Shown here piece after piece: positions 1,762 to 58,245 of a stretch of DNA of 64,000 nucleotides. The stretch comes from Candidatus Omnitrophota bacterium. Lineage in GTDB: Bacteria > Omnitrophota > Gorgyraeia > Zapsychrales > JAKLDJ01. The translations under genes and the position numbers were made by a program. Below the pieces are notes generated by a model. It made no database searches. It was not told the DNA's origin and was given only the letters and a program-made list of their open reading frames with translations. Position 1 is the stretch's first letter. Each line of letters opens with the position of its first letter. The stretch lies in NCBI GenBank assembly GCA_022703585.1, contig JAKLDJ010000001.1:54891-118890 (forward strand), given 5' to 3'.

Positions 1762-2388
1762 TTACGCCTTAGGGGAGATAAGTTCGGCTTTTTGGGCGAA
1801 GTGGATGAGTTCGGTGACGGTTTTAGCCTGCATCTTGTACATGACCCGGCTGCGGTGGACTTTAATCACCTGGAGAGAAGTTCCGCGCTTAAAGGCAATC
1901 TGCTTGCTTAACATCCCGTTAGCCACTAAACGGAAAACTTCAAGCTCGCGAGGCGAGAGAGTTTTGATACGCCGCCAGATTTTTGCTACCTCAGCCTGTT
2001 CTTTAATCAGGGCTTTGCTTTTTACAATAGCTTCCTCAATCGCGTTAATTAGTTTTTTTACGGTGAACGGTTTGGGAAGAAAATCTACGGCTCCTCCCTT
2101 CATCGCTTTCACGCTCTTGGGGATATTCCCATGCCCTGAAATAAAAATAATCGGGATAGCCAGCCCTTGCGTCGTCATTGTCTCCTGCAAGACAAGCCCA
2201 CTCATATTAGGGAGGCGTAAATCCGAAACGAGGCACGAGATAGTTTTGGGGTGTTTAAAAGCCAGGAAATCTTTAGCGCGCGTAAATGCCTCAACTCTAA
2301 ACCCGTGTGCTTTTAACAGTAACGCTAACGCCCTGCAGACAGAAGTATCATCGTCAACAATATAAACGATCGGACTGCCGCTGGTCAT
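1762..2388 (-). CDS. Two-component response regulator, FixJ/NarL (LuxR HTH) family
   Basis: N-terminal receiver (IVYIVDDDTSVCRAL) plus C-terminal LuxR-type HTH (LSPRELEVFRLVANGMLSKQIA). 4-bp overlap with the upstream kinase gene. Confidence 0.85.
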   Translation of the reverse strand: MTSGSPIVYIVDDDTSVCRALALLLKAHGFRVEAFTRAKDFLAFKHPKTISCLVSDLRLPNMSGLVLQETMTTQGLAIPIIFISGHGNIPKSVKAMKGGAVDFLPKPFTVKKLINAIEEAIVKSKALIKEQAEVAKIWRRIKTLSPRELEVFRLVANGMLSKQIAFKRGTSLQVIKVHRSRVMYKMQAKTVTELIHFAQKAELISPKA

Positions 2389-3758
2389 GAGACATCCTTC
2401 TTGTCGACAGAAATGGTGAAATAAAAAGTTGCCCCTCTGTCAGGATTATTCTTAGCTTCCAAACGGCCACCATGTTCTTCCACAATAGACCGGCTGATAG
2501 ACAATCCCATGCCCAAACCATCGGGCTTGCTGGTAAAAAAGTGACTGAAGAGTTTTTTCATGTTCTCCGCCGGAATACCGCAGCCCGAATCCTTCACCTC
2601 CACCAGGATCATGTTCGGACCTTTGCGAGAGGTAGAAATCACCAGTTCACGGGAATCATCGCGGCCCTCCATCGCGTCTAAACTGTTGCTGATAAGATTT
2701 AGAAGAACCTGTTGCAATTGTATTCGATCGCCGCGAATAGCCGGGAGATTCGTATCCAATTCGGTCTTAAGCACCTTGTTCCTTACGGTAACATCGGTTG
2801 CCATGAGCATGGCCGTTTCATTAATGAGAACGTTAATATCAAAAGACTCCAATGTCGGCTTACTCTTTTTCAACAACGATCTTAAGCGCCGGATAACCTC
2901 GCTGGCACGCTGGTCGTCATTAATGATATACTGCAAAATTTCTTGAAGTTGCGGCTCTCGCCCTGCCAGTATGCGCTGGGCAGCCTGAGCATAAGAGAGA
3001 ATAGCGGTTAAAGGTTGGCTGATTTCGTGGGCCAGGGAAGAGACAAACTCCGCAAGTTTCCCCACCCGCGTAACATGCAAAAGCTCCTCACGCTGCTCTT
3101 TAATCTCCAAATCCCTTTCCCGTATTAACGTAACATCAGCCTGAATCCCGACATAATGAGTAACCGTGCCGCTTGGATCACGCACCGGAGCAATGCGCAG
3201 TAAATCCCAGTATTTTTTGCCGTTCTTTTGAAAGCTGAGCATTTCTCCGTGAAAAGATTTCCCTTGAAGCATCGTATGTTTTATTTCCCGAACGATACGG
3301 GGATCAGCATCAGTTCCGTAAAGATCAAAATAATCCCGACCAAGGATCTCCCTTTTTGTATAGCCGGTCATTTTCTGAAAAGACTGATTGGTATAGATAA
3401 CGGGAAAGTTGGGCTTTTGGGCGTCGATAATAAAAATACCATCGGCGGTCGAATCCATCGCCTTGGTACGAATATGGACCTGCTCTTCCGCCAATCTGTC
3501 TTTATCTTCCCAACTCCTTATCTGGCCATTCTTAAATTTTAACTCATCCGCTTGTTGGCGAATCACCTCTCCTAAATGATTACGAGTTTTATCTTGATCA
3601 GAAGCCCGTCTCTTAAGCTGCCGGCGCTTCTGGTTACGGATACTGTTTTTCGGTAACGACTTTTTCTTTTGTCCGCTTAACTTTAAACTTATTCCGCTTT
3701 TCTTAGAAATCAGCGGTTTTTGCTTAAGCTTAGGACTTTTTTTCTTTATTGTTTTCAT
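2385..3758 (-). CDS. PAS-domain sensor histidine kinase
   Basis: Lys-rich N-terminus, PAS region, HisKA H-box (HEISQPLTAI) and HATPase_c (DSGCGIP...GLGMGLSISRSIVEEHGG). Confidence 0.85.
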   Translation of the reverse strand: MKTIKKKSPKLKQKPLISKKSGISLKLSGQKKKSLPKNSIRNQKRRQLKRRASDQDKTRNHLGEVIRQQADELKFKNGQIRSWEDKDRLAEEQVHIRTKAMDSTADGIFIIDAQKPNFPVIYTNQSFQKMTGYTKREILGRDYFDLYGTDADPRIVREIKHTMLQGKSFHGEMLSFQKNGKKYWDLLRIAPVRDPSGTVTHYVGIQADVTLIRERDLEIKEQREELLHVTRVGKLAEFVSSLAHEISQPLTAILSYAQAAQRILAGREPQLQEILQYIINDDQRASEVIRRLRSLLKKSKPTLESFDINVLINETAMLMATDVTVRNKVLKTELDTNLPAIRGDRIQLQQVLLNLISNSLDAMEGRDDSRELVISTSRKGPNMILVEVKDSGCGIPAENMKKLFSHFFTSKPDGLGMGLSISRSIVEEHGGRLEAKNNPDRGATFYFTISVDKKDVS

Positions 3759-3814
3759 TTGTAGTTATTTCCTGAATTCAAGAAAGCCACACCAGTTCCG
3801 GAATATATTTTATT

Positions 3815-3858
3815 CCAAACAAAAACCCTCTGCAATTTATTTTATGCAGAGGGTTGGA
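3815..3858 (-). terminator. Rho-independent terminator downstream of the 178-aa membrane protein gene
   Basis: aaccctctgca/tgcagagggtt stem, followed by a T-tract on the minus strand. Confidence 0.5.
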
Positions 3859-3940
3859 TATCCAAAACCATTTCCTCGCCGGAGAAAACTCATCTATCCC
3901 GCACCGTCAATCTCCTGTAATAAGTGCCGATTACAAAAAA

Positions 3941-4477
3941 TTAAAATAAAAGCGGTTTTAAAAACAAACCATATCCCAAAAGCACTATCGCGCCAAACCC
4001 AAAGATAAGGCCAACGCCCCACATGTATTTCTTTTTGACCAGTGCGCTCACCGAAGAAAGCATGATGGCAATCTGAAAGAAAACCACCGAGATCGAAAAG
4101 AAGTTTCCTTTTTGGGTCAGGAGCTTATTGAGCGCTCCCGTATCTTCGGCTTCTTTTCTTATCTGGCTTTTCTCGGCATCATAACGGCCGATTTCTTGCG
4201 TGGCAATTTTAAGCTTGCTGTCATAAGCCGCTTTCTGGATGTTGTTAGCGGCGCCGAGGATTTCGACTTCAAAAGCGTTCTTTTGACTTTCCGCCAAGTT
4301 TTGTTTGATACTTTTGGCTTGATAATACGCCCATTTGCTTGATTCAATGGCCGTCAAAAGCTGTGTCTTGGCACCGCATGCCGCTCCGCGGGCAGCGGCA
4401 ATAGCGGTCATGACCGCCAGGCAGGTTGTGGTAACGGCAACTCCCTTCATCCATTTTTCCGGTAATAGATCTGCCAT
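3941..4477 (-). CDS. Membrane protein, DUF4337-like (N-terminal TM, coiled coil, C-terminal TM pair)
   Basis: Hydrophobic N- and C-terminal segments and a central Lys/Glu-rich helical region. Confidence 0.45.
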   Translation of the reverse strand: MADLLPEKWMKGVAVTTTCLAVMTAIAAARGAACGAKTQLLTAIESSKWAYYQAKSIKQNLAESQKNAFEVEILGAANNIQKAAYDSKLKIATQEIGRYDAEKSQIRKEAEDTGALNKLLTQKGNFFSISVVFFQIAIMLSSVSALVKKKYMWGVGLIFGFGAIVLLGYGLFLKPLLF

Positions 4478-4603
4478 GCCTCGCCTCCTTTATTAAGCTA
4501 TGTTTTTGGCCAATAACGCCGGCCTTCGCACAACAAACATAATGCTAAAGCCCTCATTTCTATGGGCTGGGAAAAACTTACAGCGTCAAGATAATGACTT
4601 CTT

Positions 4604-4762
4604 TTAGCGGCCGCTATCTTTTCTTTTTGAATAACAGTCTCTGCAGTAAATGGGACGATCGCCTTTGGGCTTAAAAGGAACTTCGCATTCTTTCTTGCAA
4701 TCTGAACAAACCGCTTTATGCATCTCTCGCGGGCCTCTATCGTATCCACCTTGAAAAGCCAT
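4604..4762 (-). CDS. Small zinc-ribbon protein (CxxC-x17-CxxC), 52 aa, paralog A
   Basis: MAFQGGYDRGPREMHKAVCSDCKKECEVPFKPKGDRPIYCRDCYSKRKDSGR. AAAGGAG RBS. A near-identical paralog lies at 7930-8088 with conserved upstream DNA. The overlapping 97-aa track ORF (4498-4791) is not conserved in the paralog. Confidence 0.55.
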   Translation of the reverse strand: MAFQGGYDRGPREMHKAVCSDCKKECEVPFKPKGDRPIYCRDCYSKRKDSGR

Positions 4763-4867
4763 TGTTTCTCCTTTTTTTCTGGCGCTTTCATTCGAAAGCT
4801 CCGGGTTAATTAATTATACTGCCAGATAAAACAAATCTCACCTGAAGAAATAGGGTCCCTCTTTAGC

Positions 4868-5062
4868 CTAGCGGCCGTACGGGTTATCGGCGGTCGCGTC
4901 CTTGCCTTTATACCCTTCGGCAGCGCCTTCGGTCACGCCACCGATGGTGTCAGCCCCCTGGCCCACGACAGTACCGGCGGCTGTTGTTCCCTTCTTTACA
5001 GTTTCGCAACCGGCAACACAAATGATTCCTGCTAATATAATCATCACAAAAGAAAGTCTCAT
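4868..5062 (-). CDS. Small Gly/Ala-rich lipoprotein (signal peptide plus lipobox VAGC)
   Basis: MRLSFVMIILAGIICVAGC... 64 aa, low-complexity mature region. Confidence 0.5.
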   Translation of the reverse strand: MRLSFVMIILAGIICVAGCETVKKGTTAAGTVVGQGADTIGGVTEGAAEGYKGKDATADNPYGR

Positions 5063-5086
5063 TTTTTCCCCTTTGATTGATTCCGA

Positions 5087-5992
5087 TTATTCCTGAACAA
5101 TATCCCCTTTGGAAATCTCCTCGGCCTTGCCGCTCGTAATCTGTGCCTTGGAGAATTTCTCCTGGACTTCGCTGATCTTGATATCCGCTATTTTTGTTCT
5201 CTCGCTACCAAGATTCATCCCCGTGTCGGGATCGGTCAAGGCCTCGCCTTCTTTATAAACGGCGAACGTATTTCCTGTCTGGACACCCGCCGTCGTACCG
5301 GAATTCACGTAGACCAATCCGTCTTTAACCGTCACCACTTTCCCTTCCCAGGGGAGCGAAGACAATTTTCTGGAAAGATAGTCCACCGCCTGATCGATCG
5401 TGATCTGGATAACCTTGCCTAAAGGGGTTTTCTTAAAGTTGGAAGAATTAATGTCAATCGCCCCGCTATAACCAAGGCTGACTCCGCCCCCGGTCGATTC
5501 GCCTTCGACCCGTTTTGATTCGATAATTTCACCGGTGGTAGAATCGATCAGCTGGATAATCACCGCCATGTGCGTGGCTGATTTTTTCATCCCCAAAGAG
5601 ACCCCGTGAATCGAAAGCCCCTGCCCGCCACCAGAGGTGTCTTCTTCAAATTCGGTAATCTGACCCTTAATCAAAATCTGGGCCGGGACAATCTTTCCAA
5701 TCTTGGCCGTATTGGATTTGGCCATGCGGTCGCTCGCCGCGAGATCCTGTTCTGCCATCACCACGTCTAAGTCCTTGCGGGTCAAAACAATAAATTTTCC
5801 ACTTTGCACCAGGGCATCGGATAACTGGGTTGAAAAATCCTGCCCCAGGGTCGCGATGCTCGAATAACCCGAATCGTTTTGAAATTCAAAAACCGCCACC
5901 GTTTTCTTAAGCGCACCGGAACAAAAACCAGCCGTCGTCCATCCCAGGCTTAAAGCCACAACGGTTAAGAATATTAATACTTTGCTCTTCAT
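5087..5992 (-). CDS. CsgG/LpoB-like family lipoprotein
   Basis: Likely start MKSKVLIF...AGFC (lipobox) with AAGGAGAGGG RBS. TVAVFEFQN matches the CsgG-family 'AV..F.N' motif near the N-terminus. Family assignment is from motif memory. Confidence 0.5.
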   Translation of the reverse strand: MKSKVLIFLTVVALSLGWTTAGFCSGALKKTVAVFEFQNDSGYSSIATLGQDFSTQLSDALVQSGKFIVLTRKDLDVVMAEQDLAASDRMAKSNTAKIGKIVPAQILIKGQITEFEEDTSGGGQGLSIHGVSLGMKKSATHMAVIIQLIDSTTGEIIESKRVEGESTGGGVSLGYSGAIDINSSNFKKTPLGKVIQITIDQAVDYLSRKLSSLPWEGKVVTVKDGLVYVNSGTTAGVQTGNTFAVYKEGEALTDPDTGMNLGSERTKIADIKISEVQEKFSKAQITSGKAEEISKGDIVQE

Positions 5993-6015
5993 TGCTCCCT
6001 CTCCTTTTCTGGATG

Positions 6016-6657
6016 TTAATGACATAAGCTTTTCTCAATATCAACCGGATCCTGGATATTCGTTATGGTTTTCGCCTTTTTCCCGTTCACGGTATAAATG
6101 TTGTACACCGAACGCTGCTGGCCTTGTTGGAGGACAATATAATTATTTTTATCGGGACACCGGACCATGTTAAAATCTTCTGCCGTACCCAAAGAAAATT
6201 TATCCTCGTTCGAGAGATTGACCCCGTAGACAATATTCTCTCCCGCGGGAGTGAGCCCGAGATAATACATAAAATCCTCATCCTGTGAAAACATAACTTT
6301 ATCGTTCGCGCCGCGGGGCGTGTATTCAACAATCATGCGTCTTTTGCCGTTCTTTTTATCGGTGATCCAGACGCGTTTAACATATTTCGATTCCGATTTC
6401 TTCTTGTAGACTTCCAGGGCATGCTGGACCGGGTCGGTACTTTCTTCAACCTTCCAGCGCTTGAGGTCATAAACCGCAGGTTTCGTGGATTCTCCGGAGT
6501 CGGGTGTATGGACGACAACATAATCCTTTGAGTTAGCCCTATTCCGGGGAAGAATGTTCTCGGCAAACAGCATTTCCCTCTCCAGCACAAGGCCGCAGAT
6601 GAGAAGAATAAAAACGCCGACTTTTCTTAAATAGTGAGAATTCTTTCGCATATCCAT
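6016..6657 (-). CDS. Hypothetical secreted protein (signal peptide), probably co-operonic with the CsgG-like gene
   Basis: N-terminal hydrophobic signal. 23-bp gap to the downstream gene on the same strand. Confidence 0.45.
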   Translation of the reverse strand: MDMRKNSHYLRKVGVFILLICGLVLEREMLFAENILPRNRANSKDYVVVHTPDSGESTKPAVYDLKRWKVEESTDPVQHALEVYKKKSESKYVKRVWITDKKNGKRRMIVEYTPRGANDKVMFSQDEDFMYYLGLTPAGENIVYGVNLSNEDKFSLGTAEDFNMVRCPDKNNYIVLQQGQQRSVYNIYTVNGKKAKTITNIQDPVDIEKSLCH

Positions 6658-6804
6658 GTCATTGATCCTTATGTCTTATAGATTGAGCCGCTGAGGCACG
6701 GGATCAGACCCGCCTGACAACACCAGCAATCTGACACAAAAAGAATTATACATCAAAAATAACGGTAAATCCTAAAAAACTGTGAAAGTCCGCGGGTTTG
6801 TACC

Positions 6805-7800
6805 CTATACTGCGTGAAGCAAGACAGTTTTAAGCAAGACCGCGGACAAGAAACTTTCCTTCATTAAACCGCTCCCGCGAAATTCAATATCCTGGCCCAT
6901 GCGGCTGGACTCGATGATTTTGCGCCCGGTCTTCTTGGCCGCGATGTGCGCCCACTCTTCCAATTGCGGGCGGGAAATAGAGCTTAAGTTCGTGGAAACA
7001 AAAAGCATGCCCTCGCCGGTCAACGCGCGCAAGGCTTTTTCAATCAGCAGGGGCATATCTTTCTTAACGCTAAAAACTGTTCCCTCAAACCGCGAGAACG
7101 ACGGCGGGTCGAGAATGATGATATCAAAAAGATTATTGCGCTTCGCGGCCCGTTCCAAGTAGCGAACGGCGTGATCGCGGACAAACTCACTGCGGCCCTC
7201 ATGCAGATGGTTCAGGCGGTAATTTTCTTTTCCTTTATTTAAGAATTTCGCGCTAATATCCACATTGGTCACTCGAGTTGCGCCGAATTTCCGGCAATAC
7301 ACCCCGAACGAGCACGTATAAGCAAAACAATTTAAGACCGCGCGGCCCGGGGCATGAAAAGCCACCAACTTGCGGTTCTTGCGCATGTCCAGAAATAATC
7401 CCTGGTTAAGATGGTCATTTAAGTCCACGTGAAAACGTAAACCATTTTCTTCGACGATTGTTTGGGAGTTTCCTTGGCCGATCAAGACATCGACCGCGAT
7501 ACGGGAGGCGCTGCGGGTGCCGGACACGGTGCGGTCCTTACATACCAGGTAGGCAACTTCAAAATGTTCACACAGGGCATCGGCAATCGTTTTTTGATGC
7601 GGATGCCAACGGGCATCGAGGATATAGACCACAAAATGCTGGTTGAAACGGTCAATGATCAGCCCCTCAAGGCCGTCGCCTCGGCTATTGACCAAACGCA
7701 GTGCATTGGTAGCGAGCCCTAAGGATTCACGATAACTGAACGCGTTTTTCAACCGAAGAGTGATTTCTGCGGGGGAATAGGACGTTAAAGACATAAACAT
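6805..7800 (-). CDS. Class I SAM-dependent rRNA methyltransferase, RlmI-like (PUA plus MTase)
   Basis: VLNCFAYTCSFG (SAM-binding motif I analogue), DIIILDPPSFS (motif IV DPP), overall RlmI/YccW architecture. Confidence 0.65.
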   Translation of the reverse strand: MFMSLTSYSPAEITLRLKNAFSYRESLGLATNALRLVNSRGDGLEGLIIDRFNQHFVVYILDARWHPHQKTIADALCEHFEVAYLVCKDRTVSGTRSASRIAVDVLIGQGNSQTIVEENGLRFHVDLNDHLNQGLFLDMRKNRKLVAFHAPGRAVLNCFAYTCSFGVYCRKFGATRVTNVDISAKFLNKGKENYRLNHLHEGRSEFVRDHAVRYLERAAKRNNLFDIIILDPPSFSRFEGTVFSVKKDMPLLIEKALRALTGEGMLFVSTNLSSISRPQLEEWAHIAAKKTGRKIIESSRMGQDIEFRGSGLMKESFLSAVLLKTVLLHAV

Positions 7801-9647: not shown

Positions 9648-9741
9648 GGGTATTAAATTCTTTTCAAGGATTTCTGGATCCTGGAGCAAGCCGCTATTTT
9701 GCTTAAATTCCTTCAGAGCTTTCCTGGGGATACCCCTCATC

Positions 9742-11151
9742 CTACAGCTCCCCATCTCCTCCGAGAACAGCAAAAAGCCTCACCTGATGGACCAGCCTGC
9801 TTAAATGCAAATACGTAAGGCTTTGTTGCGCGGCATAGAGAGACCGTTGTGCATCCCACACACTCAAATAGCCGTCAATCCCTTGATTGTAACGTTGCTG
9901 GGATAATTCATAGACTTTCTTCGCGGAATCAACAACCGCTTCTTGTGCCGCCAGTTGATCATCCACCGTGCCCAGAACAGCAAGCACATCCGCCACCTCC
10001 TTAAACGCTACCTGGATGGTCTTTTCGTACTGGGTCAGAGCAATTTCACGCGCGGCTTTACTGACCCTATACGCAGCCCAGGTGCGGGCATCAAAGATCG
10101 GCATGCTGGTCTGCGGAGAAAAGTTCCATGTGCTTGAACCGGCTTTGAATAAACCCGAAAGCTCACTGCTGGCAGTTCCAATCGCCGTGGTCAAGGAGAT
10201 CTGAGGGAAAAATGCTGCCCGAGCTGCTCCGATAAAGGCGTAAGCTGCCTTCAGGTCATGTTCTGCGGCTAAAATATCCGGCCGACGTAAAAGCACATCC
10301 GATGATAATCCCGGGGAAATATCTTTGGGCGGCGTCACACCTGTTAAGTCGGACGGCAGTAACTCTTCCGGAACAGGAGATCCTGCAAGGAGATTCAAGG
10401 CATTCTCGTCTTGAGCCACCCATTGTGTGTAACGGGCAATATCTCCTTTAGCCTTATCCACTTGAGATTTGGAACGGCGAAGATCAATTTCGGTAGCGAC
10501 GCCGTGGTCGTAGCGTAAACGAATCACATCATGAACACCCTGCTGTGCCTCGAGCGTGGATTGAGCGAGTTTGAGATTCTCGCGATCCGCAGCCAGCGTT
10601 AGATACACACGCCCCACTTCGCTGATCAATGCGTTCTGTGCGTTACGCTGCGCTTGTTCGGTGCTCAAGTATTCCTGCAGGGCCTGCTCCTTTAGGCTCC
10701 GGATGCGGCCAAAAAAATCAACCTCCCAGGCCGTGATTCCAAGGTCAACGCTGTATTGCTCCACCACCATCGTTTTTCCCGTTGTAGCAACATAGGCGCG
10801 CTGTTTGCTTCGAGCGCCGGTTGCGGATACGGAAGGAAACAGTTCCGCCCGTTGAACACCGTAAAGGGCGCGCGCTTGTTCCACATTCAACGCAGCAAGC
10901 CTCAAGTCCCGGTTGCACAGCAATGAGATTTCGATAACCTTCTGCAGTTTTTCATCCGGAAAAACATTTTGCCACTTAAGGCCTTCCGCAGAAAGGACTC
11001 CTTCGTGCGCAGACCGATCGTCTTTGTATGCCTCACCCGTCGGCAAGGTAGCCGGGACCGGCGACTGCGGGCGCGTATATTTCGGTATCATCGTGCAACC
11101 GCTCAGGAAAAGAATTGTTCCGGCAATCAAAATTATTTGTTTTCTGTTCAT
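9742..11151 (-). CDS. RND efflux outer membrane factor lipoprotein (NodT/OprM family)
   Basis: Signal plus lipobox LSGC, two-repeat OMF architecture, 4-bp overlap with the RND permease gene. Confidence 0.85.
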   Translation of the reverse strand: MNRKQIILIAGTILFLSGCTMIPKYTRPQSPVPATLPTGEAYKDDRSAHEGVLSAEGLKWQNVFPDEKLQKVIEISLLCNRDLRLAALNVEQARALYGVQRAELFPSVSATGARSKQRAYVATTGKTMVVEQYSVDLGITAWEVDFFGRIRSLKEQALQEYLSTEQAQRNAQNALISEVGRVYLTLAADRENLKLAQSTLEAQQGVHDVIRLRYDHGVATEIDLRRSKSQVDKAKGDIARYTQWVAQDENALNLLAGSPVPEELLPSDLTGVTPPKDISPGLSSDVLLRRPDILAAEHDLKAAYAFIGAARAAFFPQISLTTAIGTASSELSGLFKAGSSTWNFSPQTSMPIFDARTWAAYRVSKAAREIALTQYEKTIQVAFKEVADVLAVLGTVDDQLAAQEAVVDSAKKVYELSQQRYNQGIDGYLSVWDAQRSLYAAQQSLTYLHLSRLVHQVRLFAVLGGDGEL

Positions 11152-15651: not shown

Positions 15652-16344
15652 TTACTCATTTGCCCTGCCTCCTACTCCCAATCCTCTCCATAAAGCCTTT
15701 AGCTGACGCATATAGTGATATTCGCGGCTGTTACTCTTGCCAAATTTGATTGCCAACAATGTCCCGGTGATAATTGTCATTAGAGAAACAACGACATCAT
15801 CCGCTTTAGTTTTCGGAGGCAGTTCGCCGTTTTTTAGAGCTAAGGCGACACATTCTTTTAACCATTCGTCCAGAATGACCGACGGTGTTTCTTCGATGCC
15901 CTCGCAATTCGGAAAAGCCATCTTTTTTTCGAGAGCAGAGATATCTATTTTTTTGGGCCTCTCGCTGCGGACCAGTAGCACAGAAAAAATCTGATAAATC
16001 ACATTATTATTGTTTAATTCCAGCGACATCTGGCTTAGCACAGAATCAATCAAGGAAAGATATTTTCCCGCCGGAGCCTCTTTCTTGGCTTTCCAAATGA
16101 TCTTTAAAGTAGCCAAATGGAGGTAATAACCAACCACGTCAATCTTTTCGGGAAAATAATTAAAGAACGTTCCTTCGGCAACCTCAACCTCTTGGCATAC
16201 TTCTCTAATGGAGATATCGTCAAACCGATTATACTTTAGCCGCTCCATAAAGGCGTTCATCAAGCCGACCTTTGTCCGGGCGTACTTCTTTTCCCTCAGG
16301 GAATAGTCTTCATTCTGTATAACAATCTGATTTATAGTGTTCAC
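15652..16344 (-). CDS. TetR/AcrR family transcriptional regulator (likely efflux operon repressor)
   Basis: N-terminal HTH ISIREVCQEVEVAEGTFFNYFPEK, located immediately upstream of the RND operon. Confidence 0.8.
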   Translation of the reverse strand: MNTINQIVIQNEDYSLREKKYARTKVGLMNAFMERLKYNRFDDISIREVCQEVEVAEGTFFNYFPEKIDVVGYYLHLATLKIIWKAKKEAPAGKYLSLIDSVLSQMSLELNNNNVIYQIFSVLLVRSERPKKIDISALEKKMAFPNCEGIEETPSVILDEWLKECVALALKNGELPPKTKADDVVVSLMTIITGTLLAIKFGKSNSREYHYMRQLKALWRGLGVGGRANE

Positions 16345-16422
16345 AGTAAAAATGTAGCATGCTATAATTTTGATGTCAAGTTCATTATCGTTTATTTACG
16401 CTGACCTGCCCCCTTCTGGGGC

Positions 16423-16460
16423 ATAAAAATAGCGCTGATCCTCATTTAGAATCAGCGCTA
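16423..16460 (-). terminator. Terminator hairpin downstream of tRNA-His
   Basis: agcgctgat/atcagcgct stem plus T-tract on the minus strand. Confidence 0.45.
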
Positions 16461-16496
16461 TCCTTCCTTAGCCTCTCGCCAAGAGGGGCATATTAC

Positions 16497-16575
16497 TGGG
16501 GTGGGTGAGGGGATTTGAACCCCCGACCCCAAGATCCACAATCTTGTGCTCTAACCGAGCTGAGCTACACCCACC
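16497..16575 (-). tRNA. tRNA-His (GTG) with G-1 and encoded CCA
   Basis: Cloverleaf fits: acceptor gtgggtg/cacccac with extra 5' G, anticodon loop ttGTGga, T-loop ttcaaat, 3' CCA encoded. Confidence 0.85.
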
Positions 16576-16579
16576 ATTA

Positions 16580-16830
16580 GCCTTAAAGCTTTTGTTTAGA
16601 AGAAATGGTGAGGAGTCCCGGCATCCTTGATGCTGATTCCAGAAAAAAGCCGGGGCACCCACCAAATTACCTTAATGTACATCCAGAAAATTTGGTGGAG
16701 CCCCGACAACCTTAATGTTTATTCCAGAGAACGTCGGGGCACCCACCATCATCCTTAAATCTTTTATTCAGAAAAAATGGTGAGGAGTCCCGAGTGTTTT
16801 TTGCGAGGGACACCCACCACCTTTTATTTA
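16580..16830 (-). repeat. Three tandem ~85-bp hairpin repeat units that look like internally deleted tRNA-His copies
   Basis: Plus-strand units begin tggtgaggagtcccg(g) / tggtggagccccgac and end c(c)ggggcacccacca. The ends match the tRNA-His acceptor 5' and 3' ends (ggtgggtg... / ...cctcacc) and pair as long stems. Unit 2's loop is shared with a hairpin beside tRNA-Arg. Confidence 0.6.
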
Positions 16831-16843
16831 ATTCTATCAAAAT

Positions 16844-17935
16844 CTATTTTACCAAAGAACCTTGCACCTTTGTAGAATCTTTGTTCTCATTCGTCGGCGC
16901 CTGATTGAACACATTGCCCGAGAAAGAAATAGATTCGATCTTAAAATCATCCATTTTTGTCTTAAATTTAAAATCAATCACAATCTCTTTAGCGGCCGAT
17001 TGCAAACCTCCCAGAATAAGGTTTTCAACCGAAAAAGAAGAAAGCTCCTTATCTTTCTGCGCATTTAAAATAAAGTCTTTGGTAACAAGTTTTCCGCGAA
17101 CCGCCATGTCGTTACGGCGCGATTCCAAGTCGACCGAAAGATCAACAACAATATGTTGAAGGTCTGAGTTAAGAGACTCGCCGTAATACGGCGAGAACAC
17201 CTTCCCGTCTAAATCGCTGACCGTTAGCTTCGCCTGCATATCTTTCCTGGCAAAATCAACCCAACCGCGGCCCTCGATTTTCCCAGCTAATGAAGACGCA
17301 TCGGCCAGCACCAGAAAAGCCCTGCAATCAAACCGGGTTTTTCCGGGGCCTAAAGGAAAACCGGCATCCCGCAATCTAAAATCAATATTACGCAGCGTAA
17401 TCCGAAAGGGCGTGTTACCGATTGAATAATCGACAAAATCTACGGTACCGTTTCTTACAATAAGCCTTTCTGCCGAGAATCTTAAGGGAACTCTTGTGCC
17501 CTCTGTTTCTTGCCCCGGGCGGGAAACAGCATCGACGGGAGTTTGAGATGCCGGCCCGGAAGCGGATTGATTTTCAGCCCCGGGAAGACTGCCAAAAATA
17601 ACCCTGGAATCCTTGGTCCTTTGAATCGTCACTCTGGGCCGAGTCAAAACCAGATCGCCAAAGGCCAGGTGATTGCTTAAAAGATAAAACACCCCCAGAT
17701 TAGCGTAGACTTCATCCGCCTGCCCGTAACCGTCGACATTAAAATTCCTGAAACGAAGCCCTAAAGGAAACAAAACCTGTATCTGGCCGATATCAACTTT
17801 TTTCCCCAGAAGAGAAGAAAGCCTCGCAGTTATCGCCTGCTTGCCCTTGAACGCGACAAAAATAAAGGCACCGGAAAATATCAGCGTTGTCAGAATCAAC
17901 GCCGCGAGTAAAATTCTTAAAATAATTTTCTTCAT
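16844..17935 (-). CDS. AsmA/DUF748-like membrane-anchored protein
   Basis: Likely start MKKIILRILLAALIL (N-terminal TM) followed by a long beta-rich region. The track ORF extends 5' toward tRNA-Arg. Confidence 0.45.
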   Translation of the reverse strand: MKKIILRILLAALILTTLIFSGAFIFVAFKGKQAITARLSSLLGKKVDIGQIQVLFPLGLRFRNFNVDGYGQADEVYANLGVFYLLSNHLAFGDLVLTRPRVTIQRTKDSRVIFGSLPGAENQSASGPASQTPVDAVSRPGQETEGTRVPLRFSAERLIVRNGTVDFVDYSIGNTPFRITLRNIDFRLRDAGFPLGPGKTRFDCRAFLVLADASSLAGKIEGRGWVDFARKDMQAKLTVSDLDGKVFSPYYGESLNSDLQHIVVDLSVDLESRRNDMAVRGKLVTKDFILNAQKDKELSSFSVENLILGGLQSAAKEIVIDFKFKTKMDDFKIESISFSGNVFNQAPTNENKDSTKVQGSLVK

Positions 17936-18011
17936 GTTTAGGGGATGATTTTTATGAGGCATCCTGCGCCCCCGCCATTGTTTCAATGGCGGGGGCGCAG
18001 AAGAATTCACG

Positions 18012-18085
18012 CGTCCCTGGGCCGATTCGAACGGCCGACCCTTTGCTTAGAAGGCAAATGCTCTATCCACCTGAGCTACAGGGAC
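18012..18085 (-). tRNA. tRNA-Arg (TCT)
   Basis: Acceptor gtccctg/cagggac, D-arm gctcaggtggatagagc, anticodon loop ctTCTaa, T-loop ttcgaat. No encoded CCA. Confidence 0.85.
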
Positions 18086-18124
18086 GGACATCATTTACGC
18101 CTTTATTTAGCTAAGTCCGTCCCA

Positions 18125-18164
18125 GCCCCGACAACCTTTTTTGTCGTTCCAGAAAGGTCGGGGC
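18125..18164 (-). repeat. Palindromic element gccccgac...ttccagaaagg...gtcggggc, related to the tRNA-His-associated repeats
   Basis: Shares ccccgacaacctt...ttccaga...gtcggggca with repeat unit 2 at 16700-16745. Confidence 0.4.
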
Positions 18165-18342
18165 AGGGGCAGAAATTCTCAGCACAACATCCAGATAAAT
18201 CCGTTCCAGTCTCAGCATCCTCCTTAAACATTTTAGAAAAGCCGAGACAGGGACATGACAATCAAATTCTTAGAGATTTATTTTCCCGCAATTGACGAAG
18301 ATATTATATCAGGCAAGGTAAAATTGGCAAGAAGGTTATCAG

Positions 18343-24263: not shown

Positions 24264-24390
24264 TTCCCGGTTACCAAATAAAAAGAGGAATAAGCCGTGA
24301 GCCATTTGTTATTTTGATTCGGCAGTCAGGCTATCCTCTTTTTTAAGGACCCTCTAACTTTGCGCACCGCCCTTACGGACAGATTGCCTT
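24264..24390 (-). promoter_or_regulatory. Candidate c-di-GMP-I (GEMM)-like riboswitch with intrinsic terminator, in the leader of the 979-aa gene
   Basis: Sense strand: aaggcaatctgtccGTAAgggcggtGCGCAAAGttag...ctgactgccgaatc, then terminator hairpin agaggatagcc...ggcttattcctct plus ttttatttgg. Closely parallels the 49342-49492 element (ggcaaactattcGTAAggataGGACGCAAAGC...ctggctgccgaatc). Confidence 0.5.
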
Positions 24391-24765
24391 TATCGTCAAA
24401 ACATGATTTCTTTAATTATCTATTTAAAAGTATAGCACTGATTTAGGGGGAAACAAGGCAGGGAGACATGCTACCGGGAAGCGTTTTCCTGGAGAGATCA
24501 TCTTTGAATATTTAACCTTCGATGACAAGCGTCAAGAGTCAAGATTACACCTGAAAACACAGAGCAATAAATTGAATTATTTTAAGTTACTGCTGGATAG
24601 ATAGCAAAGACCTCGCAATCGGGCTGAAAAAACAATCCGATCAATTCGGAACATCTGACCCCTATTACTGATAAAGATTCTCCGCTAACAACAAGGGAAC
24701 AGCCGGGAAGGTTACGGCAGGAAATTATTTTGTTCCTAAGGCTGACGCGAATGAATTCTGCGCCG

Positions 24766-26976: not shown

Positions 26977-27062
26977 AAAAACCTTTCTTTTTTAGTAGCC
27001 GGCGATTCGCCTTTTCGGCGAATCGCCGATATAAATCGGGTCAGAGAGTAATTTTCAACCCG

Positions 27063-27095
27063 TAATTAATCGGGGAGGAGAGATTTGCCCGCCTC
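27063..27095 (-). pseudogene. Short tRNA 3'-end fragment (T-arm/acceptor remnant ...aaatctctcctccccga)
   Basis: Sequence attaatcggggagg repeats the 3' acceptor end of the partial tRNA-Pro at 27179. Confidence 0.35.
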
Positions 27096-27178
27096 GTCCG
27101 CCAAATTGTGAAACAATTTGGCGCACGGGCGAGGTCTCGCCCCGCTTTGCGGGGCGGAAACTCTCAACCCTAAATTAA

Positions 27179-27243
27179 TCGGGGAGCCGGGATTTGAACC
27201 CGGGACCTCTTGCTCCCAAAGCAAGCACGCTAGCCAACTGCAC
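27179..27243 (-). pseudogene. Partial tRNA-Pro(TGG) copy (D-arm through 3' end) lacking a matching 5' acceptor strand
   Basis: The 3' ~65 nt fold well: anticodon loop ttTGGga, T-loop ttcaaat, acceptor 3' ctccccg. The required 5' cggggag is absent, replaced by a 50-nt hairpin (gcacctgactt...aagtcaggtgc). Confidence 0.5.
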
Positions 27244-27446
27244 CTGACTTCCTCTAAACTTAAAGAACTTCTATTGAGAAAAGTCAGGTGCTGCCCCAAC
27301 TTTCCACTAATCCTGTTTAGAAGAAGTTGGGACTGCACCGGCTTCTTCTAAAATAGAATCTTAAGGATGGCCGGGCTGCACTTGTTTCTTCTGAACGTAG
27401 ATCTTTTTATTCTAAGGAAAACAAGTGCTGCACCATCCTAAAAAAG

Positions 27447-27521
27447 TCGGGGCGGACAGATTTGAACTGTCGACCTTCTGCTCCCAAAGCAGACGCGCTA
27501 GCCAAGCTGCGCTACGCCCCG
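27447..27521 (-). tRNA. tRNA-Pro (TGG)
   Basis: Acceptor cggggcg/cgccccg, D-arm gcgcagcttggctagcgc, anticodon loop ttTGGga, T-arm gacagttcaaatctgtc. No encoded CCA. Confidence 0.85.
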
Positions 27522-49341: not shown

Positions 49342-49492
49342 AAAAAAACCTATCCGCAAAAATACTTAAGGATAGGTTTTAAAAACCCTGCGCCTAGATT
49401 CGGCAGCCAGACTGTCCCACACCCGGCTGGTGAGGTGTGGGATTCTTAGCTTTGCGTCCTATCCTTACGAATAGTTTGCCTTTTCGTCTAAC
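49342..49492 (-). promoter_or_regulatory. c-di-GMP-I (GEMM) type riboswitch aptamer plus intrinsic terminator
   Basis: Sense strand: ...gacgaaaaGGCAAACtattcGTAAggataGGACGCAAAGCtaag...cccacacc/ggtgtggg hairpin...ctggctgccgaatc. Matches the GEMM consensus (GCAAAC, GNRA loop, GGACGCAAAGC). Followed by cctatcc...ggatagg hairpin plus T7 and then the RBS. Confidence 0.65.
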
Positions 49493-57144: not shown

Positions 57145-58245
57145 CTAAATCTTCGCCGCTTCTTTAATAACCCCGCCGCCTAAAACCACATCATCTTGAT
57201 AAAACACAACCGACTGGCCCGGGGTAATCGATTTTTGCGGCTCCTTAAACTCGACTAACGCGTGCCCGTCTTCATGTAAAGTCAGACGGGCTTTTACCTC
57301 AGGATGATTATAGCGGATTTTTGCTTTTATAGAAATGGTATTTCTGGGTAAATTATCCGTTAAGAAATTAAGCTGCCCCGCGATAAGAGAACGGGCATAG
57401 AGATTGGAAACGTCCCCCACATAAACAGTGTTGGCCGCTTTGTCGATTCTATAGACATAGACCGGCCGGCCCAAGGCAATCCCCAACTTATCTCTCTGGC
57501 CGATCGTGTACCGGGCAATACCTTTATGCTGGCCGACAATGTTGCCGCCGCTATCCTTAAATGGGCCCGGCACGATCATTTTTTGTTCAATCCTATCTTC
57601 GATAAATTTTTGATACCCTCCGTCGGGAACAAAACATATATCCTGACTGGCCGGCTTTTCGGCATTAGGTAATTTGTATTTGCGGGCCAATATCCGCACC
57701 TGCTGCTTGGTTAGATTGCCCAACGGAAACAGGACAAAAGGCAAAATCTTTTTCTTCACACTATAGAGAAAATAGGTCTGATCCTTAAGCGTGTCCTTGC
57801 CTTTTTTTAACTCAAATCGTTGTGACGCTTTATCATACTCTATCCTGGCATAGTGTCCGGTGGCCAAATAATCCCCGCCGATTTCTCGGATCCGGTCAAA
57901 AAGCGCCCCGAATTTAAGATACCGGTTGCATTGGACGCAAGGATTGGGTGTCCTGCCGCTTAAATATTCGCTGGTAAAATTCGCGATAACATGTTGATCG
58001 ATTTCTTTGGCAAAATTAAAGACATAGTGCGCAATGCCGAGGGTATACGCCGCGCGCTTGGCATCCTGAATTCCGTCTGCGCCGCAACAAGAAGGTTTTT
58101 TACTCTTGGGATGGCTGATATTAAAGCACATCGTGACTCCGACGACATCGTAACCAGCCTCCTTCATCATCCCGGCCACGACCGAAGAGTCCACCCCTCC
58201 GCTCATCCCTACGTAAACTTTTTTCTTTTTATTGTGGACGTTCAT
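57145..58245 (-). CDS. mnmA: tRNA-specific 2-thiouridylase
   Basis: PP-loop VYVGMSGGVDSSV. Conserved Cys residues. Confidence 0.9.
   Translation of the reverse strand: MNVHNKKKKVYVGMSGGVDSSVVAGMMKEAGYDVVGVTMCFNISHPKSKKPSCCGADGIQDAKRAAYTLGIAHYVFNFAKEIDQHVIANFTSEYLSGRTPNPCVQCNRYLKFGALFDRIREIGGDYLATGHYARIEYDKASQRFELKKGKDTLKDQTYFLYSVKKKILPFVLFPLGNLTKQQVRILARKYKLPNAEKPASQDICFVPDGGYQKFIEDRIEQKMIVPGPFKDSGGNIVGQHKGIARYTIGQRDKLGIALGRPVYVYRIDKAANTVYVGDVSNLYARSLIAGQLNFLTDNLPRNTISIKAKIRYNHPEVKARLTLHEDGHALVEFKEPQKSITPGQSVVFYQDDVVLGGGVIKEAAKI

Follow-up and report, generated by a model that had tools for sequence, protein, structure and literature searches.

Tandem hairpin units resembling the tRNA-His acceptor stem in a bacterial tRNA leader, with a putative role in processing

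Why should a tRNA gene be preceded by several copies of its own 5′ end? In the 64-kb window (the whole stretch of DNA analysed here), a tRNA-His(GTG) gene lies on the minus strand at 16497..16575 (ARAGORN, 16574-16497; Rfam RF00005, 67.1 bits). It encodes both G-1 (16575) and CCA, and its acceptor is GGTGGGTG / CACCCACC. The sequence TGGTGGGTG, comprising U-2, G-1 and the 5′ acceptor strand, is found in tRNA-His itself (16576-16568) and at three minus-strand sites upstream (16819-16811, 16748-16740 and 16664-16656), each the start of a unit. These are the only four matches in the window, where 0.31 are expected and none of 100 shuffles reaches four. A first-pass annotation of this DNA had described three units 5′ of tRNA-His opening with the tRNA 5′ end, and so they do: each of the three 5′ arms matches tRNA-His U-2..G7 exactly (9-10 nt).

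On the minus strand the units follow one another in the order C, B, A. Unit C (16778..16819, TGGTGGGTGTCCC..GGGACTCCTCACCA) has a short loop and an ortholog, C′, at 1279-1322 of the related metagenomic sequence L091. Unit B (16693..16748), which also has an ortholog in L091, consists of TGGTGGGTG and CCCCGAC, a loop of the leader type described below (L-type) and GTCGGGG with CTCCACCA. Unit A (16606..16664) consists of TGGTGGGTG and CCCCGGC, an L-type loop and GCCGGGA with CTCCTCACCA. The 3′ ends read ...GGGACTCCTCACCA in A and C and ...GGGGCTCCACCA in B; such arms (...C(TC)CACCA or RCCA) had been called acceptor-like, and their CCACC-A does resemble tRNA-His C69-C73. Loops are 15-28 nt long and each unit is followed by a short U-rich run. 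Spacer C-B (16749..16777, TTTTTTCTGAATAAAAGATTTAAGGATGA), spacer B-A (16665..16692, AATTTTCTGGATGTACATTAAGGTAATT) and the leader next to tRNA-His (16576..16605, TTTCTTCTAAACAAAAGCTTTAAGGCTAAT) complete the array, all on the minus strand. Spacers and unit loops carry one AT-rich motif (TTTTCT..TTAAGG, the L motif) in like orientation, and the loops resemble the true tRNA-His leader. Start-to-start spacings of the TGGTGGGTG copies are 71, 84 and 88 nt, and TRF reports a period of 85 (2.5 copies, 69% matches, 16568-16782); the initial figure of about 85 bp per unit thus suits B and A and is too long for C. Unit A looks recombinant, its 5′ half being B-like and its 3′ arm plus following spacer 89% identical to the unit C counterparts. 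The Logan assembly of SRR5007146 holds an array identical to that of the window, making a mis-assembly peculiar to the source of the window less likely if that assembly is truly independent.

The first idea, that the units are internally deleted tRNAs, is not supported, for no residual core is detectable. The tRNA covariance model (RF00005) did not match them even at E<=10, and ARAGORN found only the four annotated tRNAs in the window. Instead of a residual core, the interior holds a covarying helix and the leader-like AT-rich motif. Comparison with known Rfam families gave only chance miRNA-like hairpin matches, far below threshold, and the t-element T-arm motif GGTTCRANYCC is absent from the units. 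What they share with tRNA is acceptor-strand homology, and in structure and position, between the DUF748 stop codon and tRNA-His, they agree with acceptor-stem-like processing stem-loops. That they are neither CRISPR nor REP had been recognized from the start: arm orientation alternates, the ‘spacers’ all repeat a single AT-rich motif, and the dispersal of REP, REPIN or BIME elements is not seen, copies in the window and about 80 kb of relatives being tRNA-linked only.

Several other readings were tried and rejected. Small ORFs, suggested by an SD-like AAGG and AUG at unit starts, fail because the period of 85 is not divisible by 3, the frame in L092 meets an early stop and a start codon is missing from several units; when the codons of unit B and its L091 ortholog were compared by eye, the changes looked mostly non-synonymous. 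As a sigma-70 or sigma-54 promoter the L motif misfits in spacing and key bases, and the scan was negative. A CsrA sponge was considered for the GGA in loops and spacers, which is unconserved in relatives.

As predicted RNA, the units fold into hairpins without a cloverleaf core, as had been proposed, at -32.1 kcal/mol for B (z -6.2), -25.8 for A (z -2.4) and -18.0 for C (z -2.4), the weakest of the three. The 3′ arm of B and the 5′ arm of A can form an alternative hairpin with spacer B-A as its potential loop (-29.6 kcal/mol, z -5.9), matching the units themselves in stability. Because the spacers share the loop motif in like orientation, each arm is able to pair with either neighbour. Sense and antisense fold energies show no difference (sense is favoured in 8 of 15; Wilcoxon p=0.64), so pairing could also take place at the DNA level or on the opposite strand. 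RCCA is present in all 10 units of the window and its relatives, and the predicted folds pair it with UGGU; if ACCA is counted as a tail, ~11 bp are left. The RNase P minihelix criterion used for comparison is a helix of ~12 bp, a 5′ leader and a single-stranded 3′ RCCA.

In thermodynamic models the native acceptor stem has a probability of 0.88-1.0 when the leader is <=30 nt, and of 0.99-1.0 in L213 and L215, two relatives that lack units; a 3′ arm without its 5′ arm brings it to 0.00 in the window, L091, L092 and L220. With complete units, equilibrium models often give a strand-swapped fold that disrupts tRNA-His, and in such models this fold looks costly, not useful, unless folding is kinetic.

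The array occupies the 3′UTR of a gene for a DUF748/AsmA-like membrane protein (16844..17935, minus strand; Pfam PF05359, E 3.9e-19), which lies between tRNA-His and a tRNA-Arg(TCT) gene (18011..18085, minus strand; ARAGORN and Rfam; acceptor GTCCCTG / CAGGGAC, no encoded CCA). Upstream of this whole stretch the promoter scan found one good minus-strand candidate, a sigma-70-like TTGCCA-16-TATAAT (18303..18330; 11/12, with TG); the same scan of the unit region found none. L219 has an equivalent promoter upstream of its Arg leader and none in its DUF748-to-His spacer. Downstream of tRNA-His, a terminator-like hairpin followed by TTTTTAT (16429..16461, minus strand) is the probable operon end, and an intrinsic terminator consensus scan of 16575-16850 found nothing. 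A perfect 17-bp stem with a 3-nt loop and no U tract (17964..18000, minus strand), between tRNA-Arg and the DUF748 start, is a candidate mRNA 5′-end structure. On this sequence layout a single transcript most likely runs from the promoter through leader hairpins, tRNA-Arg, DUF748 mRNA, units C-B-A and tRNA-His to the terminator. Co-transcription is inferred, as are the cleavage sites and stability effects of the units discussed below.

The neighbouring tRNA-Arg has a unit of its own (18116..18175, minus strand; -28.4 kcal/mol, z -3.5), with outer arms TCTGCCCCTG / CTGGGACGGA. These copy the tRNA-Arg leader plus 5′ end and the 3′ strand plus G73, the 3′ arm being the inverse complement of leader and acceptor at 10 of 11 positions. 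Its inner stem and L-type loop are those of His unit B, and the first-pass annotation had already seen the shared loop: CCCCGAC-N-GTCGGGG occurs in the window only at 16701-16739 and 18126-18163 (0.02 expected), 1.4 kb apart, with loops 80% identical and 15 nt (AAGGTTGTCGGGGCT) shared exactly. Another hairpin of this leader, again with an L-type loop (GTCTCGGC-TTTTCTAAAATGTTTAAGGAGGAT-GCTGAGAC; 18206..18251, minus strand) folds at -19.5 kcal/mol (z -4.1). The tRNA-Pro locus of the window holds a pseudo-tRNA-Pro truncated at its 5′ side, the tRNA-Pro 3′ end in a third copy and four hairpins, with L-type loops in both orientations and a diverged copy of the inner stem and loop shared by B and the Arg unit. 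Together with tRNA 3′ fragments, which are also found in L214 and L221, the pseudo-tRNA-Pro suggests a rearrangement-prone setting. Throughout the window and about 80 kb of relatives (about 143 kb in all), hairpins with L-type loops occur at tRNA loci only. Farther afield, the 15-nt GAATAAAAGATTTAA of spacer C-B recurs in a hairpin loop in a tRNA cluster of Candidatus Dadabacteria CSP1-2, which shares a tRNA-His 30-mer with the window and has no units.

Related metagenomic genomes show that the array is not unique to this locus, nor a generic GC-rich repeat, dispersed copies being absent from the window and the relatives. Between the DUF748 stop codon and tRNA-His, two units are found in L091, one in L092, one in L100, two in L219 and one in L220, all five sharing the order tRNA-Arg, DUF748, tRNA-His; copy number over the six genomes including the window is thus 1-3. 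Hairpin z-scores of the relatives' units range from -2.1 (the L091 short-loop unit) to -8.4. Most of these genomes have diverged to synonymous saturation: identity at DUF748 4-fold sites is 0.64 for window and L091 and 0.25-0.46 (saturated) for the remaining pairs. Five of the eight inner-helix pairs show double compensatory changes, and 97.9% of inner-helix cells are paired, a level reached in 0 of 500 shuffles and compared with 29-50% in slid controls; between unit B and its L091 ortholog there is a compensatory C-G to U-A change. The RCCA end is followed by a T-rich run in 10/10 His units, a TTTTCT-like run lying within 0-3 nt of every unit. The tRNA-proximal leader keeps its length (28-31 nt) and pattern in the six genomes, with a mean identity of 0.67 vs 0.56 in composition-matched shuffles and with its best pairs (0.77) above all shuffles.

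Arms partly track the tRNA of their own genome. The L220 unit starts with TGGTGGATGT, identical to its own A5 tRNA, and CATCC in the 3′ arms of L100 and of L219 unit 1 matches the 3′ strands of their tRNAs; in L100 and in L219 unit 2 the 5′ arm has diverged from the tRNA sequence. Arg leaders likewise contain copies, 7-14 nt long, of the tRNA-Arg 5′ end, and these share its lineage-specific changes (e.g. GGCCCCG in L219), and in L100 and L219 a 14-nt copy flanks an inserted element. Unit interiors are mixed, with L-type loops, other hairpins and, in L219, a 95-nt element E. The tRNA-Arg-DUF748-tRNA-His synteny itself is wider (L092, L213, L214, L215, L219, L220, L100). L213, L214, L215-218 and L221 have it with a plain spacer of 9-80 nt and no units, and this patchy distribution indicates that the modules are dispensable. 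Among 51 distinct tRNA-His loci from metagenomes that share the D-arm, upstream acceptor copies are confined to this clade. Broader searches were less informative: a viral-contig scan for GGTGGGTGCCCCGRC gave 88 single chance matches, nhmmer with an 18-member L-motif profile yielded no significant match (so short and AT-rich a motif is unsuited to it), and a loose TGGYG..CCRCCA hairpin regex was dominated by chance matches in GC-rich loci. A match in L146 and L173, near tRNA-His of another lineage, was rejected as lying inside a coding region on the opposite strand.

Our tentative preference, held with a confidence somewhat short of even, is that the units are lineage-specific, tandemly duplicated stem-loop modules, read as RNA in the DUF748 3′UTR and pre-tRNA leader, that imitate the acceptor stem. 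Their probable role is punctuation, for processing or for stability, together with sequestration of the 3′ arm that would otherwise invade tRNA-His; processing punctuation, a putative function, is the most plausible of the roles first proposed, and roles as substrate or decoy of RNase P or the CCA-adding enzyme, proposed alongside it, are conjectural. The leader is a conserved structured one, apparently of a kind not previously described, rather than junk or a generic repeat. Each module has the build of an acceptor stem closed on a foreign interior, with a 5′ arm copying U-2, G-1 and G1-G7 of tRNA-His, a 3′ arm complementary to that copy and ending in RCCA, and between them a freely covarying helix and a loop copying the AT-rich tRNA leader. 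Unequal exchange among identical TGGTGGGTG copies would change the size of the array. After an RNase P cut at tRNA-His, the hairpins would form the DUF748 mRNA 3′ end and may shield it against 3′ exonucleases. The 5′ arm may be kept because it sequesters the 3′ arm. Since the tRNA has one 3′ strand and each of the four 5′ copies can pair with it, tRNA-processing enzymes may find alternative acceptor-like sites in the modules, which would be ‘punctuation’ in the manner of t-elements.

A bolder and improbable extension makes the units a bacterial counterpart of t-elements co-evolving with their cognate tRNA, RNase P cutting at every UGGUGGGUG copy to give minihelices or decoys. The enzyme may be guided by the shared 3′ strand or by the RCCA arm of each unit, and the cuts may release acceptor-stem minihelices of about 55-60 nt with G-1:C73. 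Once 3′-trimmed and CCA-added, these could be substrates that HisRS recognises or even charges; in another version the units could be decoys that tune the availability of RNase P or HisRS. A register-shifting array could also time tRNA-His maturation against DUF748 mRNA release.

The serious rival, doubtful as we consider it, grants the units no positive function: tRNA loci of this lineage would be prone to partial duplications and small insertions in which tRNA ends are copied, and the units would be debris of this, multiplied by slippage between TGGTGGGTG copies. The hairpin would then be retained only since an unpaired 3′ arm poisons tRNA-His folding, a case of constructive neutral evolution, or else its arms would be matched by quasi-palindrome template-switch repair, which can keep palindromes perfect without selection. 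Much of the above suits such a by-product, including the patchy presence in 1-3 copies, the heterogeneous interiors, the recombinant look of unit A, the pseudo-tRNA, hairpins and extra 3′ end at the Pro locus, the tRNA-Arg 5′ copy around the inserted element of L100 and L219, and the lack of strand asymmetry; the in silico loss of the acceptor stem with a lone 3′ arm gives a purely defensive reason for the 5′ arm. It accounts less well for the same site and terminal features (UGGUGG...CCRCCA, U-rich run) in six genomes with saturated synonymous divergence, or for leader-like loops and spacers conserved above composition-matched chance. Deleting a whole unit, moreover, would remove the ‘poison’ more easily than the upkeep of two arms, yet units persist and multiply. 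Leaky intrinsic terminators or attenuators of DUF748, whose alternative pairings would set read-through into tRNA-His, appear unlikely. The TTTTCT-like runs 0-3 nt past each unit, the mutually exclusive hairpins of equal stability and a tRNA-His without a separate promoter are what attenuation would call for, but the terminator scan was negative here, loops of 15-28 nt compare with a typical 3-8 nt, the U runs are short and interrupted, and no sensing element was identified. Because a presumably essential tRNA-His depends on read-through for want of its own promoter, efficient termination would be impossible.

Mobility of one kind or another has also to be weighed. That the units are miniature palindromic elements (REP/REPIN-, MITE- or PATE-like) with a preference for tRNA leaders is quite unlikely, even if an inner stem and loop shared by His unit B and the Arg unit with a diverged Pro copy, both loop orientations at the Pro locus, the patchiness among relatives and the related loop hairpin in the tRNA cluster of the Dadabacteria MAG all hint at movement. 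Copies off tRNA loci are absent from the about 143 kb, there are no conserved terminal inverted repeats, and stems vary while loops are conserved, the opposite of MITEs; the outer arms are locus-specific copies of the adjoining tRNA. A Pfam scan of five ORFs around the locus found no transposase, and the stretches around these loci showed neither RAYT nor transposase. Remnants of att sites, left by site-specific integration that struck tRNA-His repeatedly, were one option of the first-pass annotation; they fit poorly and are very improbable. Integration has its hot spots in tRNA genes, a large-serine-recombinase island lies directly 3′ of tRNA-His in L091, and tRNA 3′ fragments lie at the Pro locus and in L214 and L221. 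The units themselves, however, sit upstream and copy only 9-10 nt of the 5′ end, are closed by a complementary arm without element remnants, and show compensatory conservation across saturated synonymous divergence; no integrase flanks them in the window.

Known systems resemble the preferred module reading in part. In the tyrT operon of Escherichia coli (rtT region), 178-bp repeats carry the tRNA-Tyr 3′ end and are transcribed with the tRNA; they too are tandem and next to a tRNA gene, each with a short copy of one tRNA end, but they lie downstream, copy the 3′ 19 nt and do not form hairpins that the two acceptor strands close. Elements of the REP/BIME type number hundreds of dispersed copies with a family-wide consensus and a cognate RAYT, and can stabilise upstream mRNA 3′ ends. 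The enterobacterial ones are GC-rich palindromes of alternating orientation with short conserved linkers, as here, whereas our units are confined to tRNA leaders and take their arms from the adjoining tRNA. Hairpin substrates of bacterial RNase P include precursor 4.5S RNA and acceptor/T-stem minihelices. The units share with these a long helix starting with G and a 3′ RCC(A), but their RCCA is base-paired with UGGU and there is no T-loop; cleavage of the units is putative. RNase P cleavage is controlled by leader structure, and leader switches have been designed (PMC7897497; PMC9433436). The likeness to the units would lie in an influence on RNase P of the leader, through its structure and its pairing with RCCA.

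In plant mitochondria, t-elements and acceptor-stem-like stem-loops at the ends of mRNAs have been proposed as signals for RNase P/Z (Forner et al. 2007, PMC1920247), which would be punctuation by an RNA other than a tRNA. Like the units, they imitate acceptor stems beside mRNA termini in polycistronic transcripts; unlike them, they keep a T-arm motif and a cloverleaf-like fold. They are also organellar, whereas the units are bacterial and tandem, copy the adjacent cognate tRNA and sit in its leader. In E. coli, RNase P cuts between secG mRNA and leuU, after which the mRNA, being unprotected, decays in <30 s (Mohanty & Kushner 2008, PMC2241853). There, as probably in the window, a coding gene precedes a tRNA in one transcript and the RNase P cut, putative here, makes the mRNA 3′ end. 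secG has no protective structure, whereas 1-3 stable hairpins separate the DUF748 stop codon from the tRNA, and the DUF748 gene is additionally preceded by a tRNA.

If the modules act as RNA, bacteria would have a natural ‘punctuation by tRNA mimicry’ of an mRNA between two tRNAs, in which hairpins copying the acceptor stem of the downstream tRNA shape the mRNA 3′ end. The modules would then offer a testable system for the effects of structured leaders and leader-acceptor competition on RNase P site choice, effects so far studied mainly with designed leaders, for mRNA stability control in tRNA-mRNA operons, and for how short tRNA-end copies remain matched over long divergence. If they are by-products, they would be a case of constructive neutral evolution in which half-loss would poison an essential tRNA, and tRNA leaders would be recurrent end-copying sites in this uncultivated lineage.

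The inner stem GCCCCGAC/GTCGGGGC equals the ends of the window's tRNA-Pro in swapped order; we take this as coincidence because the inner stems of relatives differ and covary freely. Logan contigs stop in or beside the tRNA-His and tRNA-Pro loci, arrays of such kind being ones that break short-read assemblies.

The 275 nt immediately 5′ of tRNA-His(GTG) (16574-16497, − strand; both its G-1, at 16575, and its CCA are encoded) comprise three units parted by 28-30-nt spacers: reading 5′ to 3′ on the − strand, unit C (16819-16778), unit B in the middle (16748-16693) and unit A nearest the tRNA (16664-16606). Every unit starts with TGGTGGGTG, an exact match to tRNA-His U-2, G-1 and G1-G7; the 64-kb window holds four copies of this 9-mer, all at the tRNA-His locus, where 0.31 would be expected. 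The 3′ ends are CTCCTCACCA in units A and C and CTCCACCA in unit B. TRF calls a tandem repeat of period 85 with 2.5 copies, and the array is identical in an independent Logan assembly, whose contig stops within tRNA-His. These data confirm the first-pass annotation's observation of units with acceptor-like ends at this tRNA, and its interpretation holds in part. Mimicry of the acceptor ends is supported: the outer helix, UGGUGG(G)/(U)CCACCA, is identical to the uppermost pairs of the tRNA-His acceptor stem, G-1:C73 among them. The suggestion that they are internally deleted tRNAs is not supported; the units match neither Rfam families nor a partial tRNA model.

Units are built of an outer helix, a small internal loop, an inner helix (GCCCCGAC/GUCGGGGC in unit B) and an AT-rich loop of the pattern TTTTCT..TTAAGG. 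All three are predicted to fold as hairpins: unit B at −32.1 kcal/mol (z −6.2), unit A at −25.8 (z −2.4) and unit C at −18.0 (z −2.4), the last being the marginal one of the ten units known here and in relatives. The AT-rich L motif recurs, with orientation unchanged, in the inter-unit spacers and the 30-nt tRNA-adjacent leader, so that the array has the order X-L-X'-L-X-L-X'-L-X(tRNA). Each 3′ arm thus has two possible partners, the preceding or the following 5′ copy, and an alternative hairpin spanning spacer B-A rivals the units in stability (−29.6, z −5.9). In relatives without units the plain leader is L-like, which suggests that L represents the ancestral tRNA-His leader, from which the unit loops would have been copied. 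Copy number is 1, 2 or 3 among genomes and unit A resembles a B/C recombinant; the variation fits unequal exchange between identical 9-mers.

Relatives were recovered using the DUF748 protein, encoded just upstream of the array, and the tRNA-His D-arm as anchors. Five further metagenomic genomes have units at the same site: two units orthologous to window C and B in L091 (DUF748 78% identical), one in L092 (40% identical), one each in L100 and L220, and two plus an inserted 95-nt element in L219. Four other lineages (L213, L214, L215-218 and L221) have a plain 9-80-nt spacer in the same synteny, and among 51 distinct metagenomic tRNA-His loci with the same D-arm, upstream acceptor copies are confined to this clade. 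Folding is stable in nine of the ten units, with z from −2.1 (the short-loop unit of L091) to −8.4 for the seven in relatives. At DUF748 four-fold degenerate sites, the window and L091 share an identity of 0.64, and all other pairs fall in the saturated range of 0.25-0.46. Despite this synonymous divergence three features persist. The inner helix shows five double compensatory substitutions in eight pairs, with 97.9% of cells paired, a value reached by 0/500 shuffles (slid controls, 29-50%). RCCA is the 3′ terminus of every one of the ten units, and a T-rich run comes after it. Leaders next to the tRNA are 0.67 identical, against 0.56 for composition-matched shuffles, and the best pairs exceed every shuffle.

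Arms also follow the cognate tRNA, in part. The first reading noted a unit loop shared with a palindrome beside tRNA-Arg(TCT) (18085-18011, −), and this is confirmed: the palindrome, an Arg unit upstream of that tRNA, matches His unit B in both inner stem and loop. The outer arms are instead TCTGCCCCTG, resembling the tRNA-Arg leader and 5′ strand, and CTGGGACGGAC, a 10/11 inverse complement of that leader and strand which resembles the tRNA-Arg 3′ strand and G73 without CCA; tRNA-Arg likewise lacks an encoded CCA. His and Arg units alike have their junction immediately 3′ of tRNA position 7. The L220 unit begins with TGGTGGATGT of its own tRNA, and CATCC, lineage-specific in the tRNA 3′ strand, appears also in the 3′ arms of L100 and of L219 unit 1; drift has altered the 5′ arms of L100 and of unit 2 in L219. 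In L100, L219 and L220 the Arg leader repeats 8-14 nt from the 5′ end of tRNA-Arg, and the L219 copy mirrors two lineage-specific acceptor changes.

The DUF748/AsmA-like gene (16844-17935, −) has the units as its 3′ untranslated region and is itself preceded by tRNA-Arg. The only good sigma-70-like match upstream on the − strand (18330-18303) precedes two further hairpins and tRNA-Arg; none was found in the unit region on this strand. A terminator-like hairpin lies 3′ of tRNA-His. Relatives keep the order tRNA-Pro (often leading), tRNA-Arg, DUF748, tRNA-His, and in L219 the sole promoter is again upstream of the Arg leader. Given this promoter placement and gene order, the most economical reading is a single transcript with tRNA-Arg, mRNA, units and tRNA-His. 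A strong sigma-70-like match on the + strand (16340-16368, TTCACA-17-TATAAT, 11/12, with TG), divergent from the TetR-like gene, is directed antisense to tRNA-His and its array, which may therefore also be transcribed in antisense. Between tRNA-Arg and the DUF748 start codon, 17 perfectly paired bp form a GC-rich stem capped by a 3-nt loop, with no U tract (17964-18000); L100 has a comparable hairpin in the same position.

We favour the reading that the units are RNA stem-loop modules, duplicated in tandem and kept by selection, in the 3′UTR/pre-tRNA leader of a tRNA-mRNA-tRNA operon, where they would serve as punctuation. Once RNase P has cleaved at tRNA-His, the modules would remain on the upstream mRNA and protect its 3′ end. 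In contrast, E. coli secG mRNA decays within 30 s after RNase P separates it from leuU (PMC2241853). The 5′ arm would hold the acceptor-complementary 3′ arm and keep it from invading the tRNA. In thermodynamic models, the native acceptor stem forms with P = 0.88-1.0 whether the tRNA has no leader or one of 30 nt. With 60 nt, which adds a 3′ arm without its 5′ arm, P is 0.00 in the window, L091, L092 and L220, and 0.99-1.0 in unit-less L213 and L215. With complete units, minimum-energy folds are often strand-swapped, the unit 5′ copy pairing with the tRNA 3′ strand and the unit 3′ arm with the tRNA 5′ strand; in the window a single tRNA 3′ strand has four equivalent 5′-copy partners. The 3′ arm is thus a potent competitor needing a partner, and the array presents alternative acceptor-like helices. 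These are equilibrium models; under co-transcriptional folding in the cell each local hairpin would form first. Since they imitate the acceptor stem, the modules may themselves be recognised by enzymes of tRNA processing, a role suggested for t-elements and acceptor-stem-like stem-loops of plant mitochondria (PMC1920247). Leader structure and leader-RCCA pairing modulate RNase P in designed and natural leaders (PMC7897497, PMC9433436). We found no description of bacterial leader hairpins copying the cognate tRNA in the literature searched or in Rfam. Conceptually they come nearest to organellar t-elements, mRNA-tRNA cotranscripts, tyrT repeats and REP stabilisers.

A strong rival, which we consider less likely, is a non-adaptive origin with the hairpin retained only defensively. 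Template-switch repair can keep palindromes matched, and the lineage clearly produces tRNA-end debris, as the window's tRNA-Pro locus attests. Sister lineages without modules indicate that they are dispensable there. Folds are equally stable in sense and antisense, so support for an RNA-level role on the tRNA strand comes only from context. In favour of retained modules stand the features that outlast synonymous saturation. Other explanations fit more poorly. That the units are leaky terminators is improbable, and that they are mobile palindromes slightly more so; across the window and about 80 kb of relatives, hairpins of this large-loop type occur nowhere but at tRNA loci, so over that span they are not a dispersed REP family, in keeping with the first-pass view that this is no standard REP. 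Scars of integrase attachment, also raised there, are very improbable.

At the Pro locus, intact tRNA-Pro(TGG) (27521-27446, −) is accompanied by a 5′-truncated pseudo-tRNA-Pro (27253-27180, −), which matches the tRNA model from position 9 to 63 only and has its 5′ acceptor strand replaced. Between them are four adjacent hairpins with differing stems (ACTTGTTT, CCGGC, CCCAACTTC and ACCTGACTT) and AT-rich L-type loops in both orientations, linked by GCAG(C/T), which matches the pseudo-tRNA D-arm start; in hairpin c (GTCCCAAC..GTTGGGGC) the His/Arg inner stem recurs in diverged form. The tRNA-Pro 3′ end and trailer occur a third time at 27050-27087, 82% identical to 27159-27196 and 63% to the real tRNA-Pro (27427-27464). 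The close copies flank ~70 nt with two GC-rich hairpins (27095-27127 and 27131-27163), which looks like an att-type duplication or small insertion.

Partial tRNA-Arg copies occur in two unit-less relatives, a repeated 3′ half beside restriction-modification genes in L214 (4330-4700) and a 3′ fragment with an insertion, after tRNA-Arg, in L221 (1-264), which suggests that rearrangement or integration has recurred at tRNA-Arg in the clade. Directly 3′ of tRNA-His, the closest relative, L091, has an island (1865-7000) encoding a large serine recombinase, DUF2924, a DNA methylase and a Vsr endonuclease, whose place in the window is taken by a TetR-like gene and an RND efflux operon. Leaders of tRNA-Arg and tRNA-His in relatives contain a structured, conserved element E of ~95 nt (L219 11198-11286 and ~9725-9846; L100 ~1470-1354, −). 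In Arg leaders, a 14-nt copy of tRNA-Arg positions 1-14 lies on one side of E and the real tRNA on the other. Each of its two hairpins has a closing helix that contains a tandem GA/GA internal loop (UAAAU-GA-G[stem]C-GA-AUUUA and AUCCU-GA-G[stem]C-GA-AGGAU), with compensatory changes among the three copies and z −4.75 for one; it has no match in Rfam. In Candidatus Dadabacteria CSP1-2 (L090 4640-4726; also L105/L129/L141), a compact tRNA-Pro, tRNA-Arg, tRNA-His cluster lacks the DUF748 gene and units, and its Pro-Arg interval has one hairpin, with 15 nt of the loop (GAATAAAAGATTTAA) found also in window spacer C-B.

Elsewhere in the window, a perfect 14-bp inverted repeat (CCGGCGCCTTCAAC / GTTGAAGGCGCCGG; 59932-59979) with a 20-nt loop that is not L-like lies within a long ORF (58242-60263). 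Two c-di-GMP-I class riboswitch aptamers on the − strand, a GGC variant (60.5 bits) and a classic form (55.4 bits), at 49398-49489 and 24318-24398, both score above the Rfam gathering thresholds.
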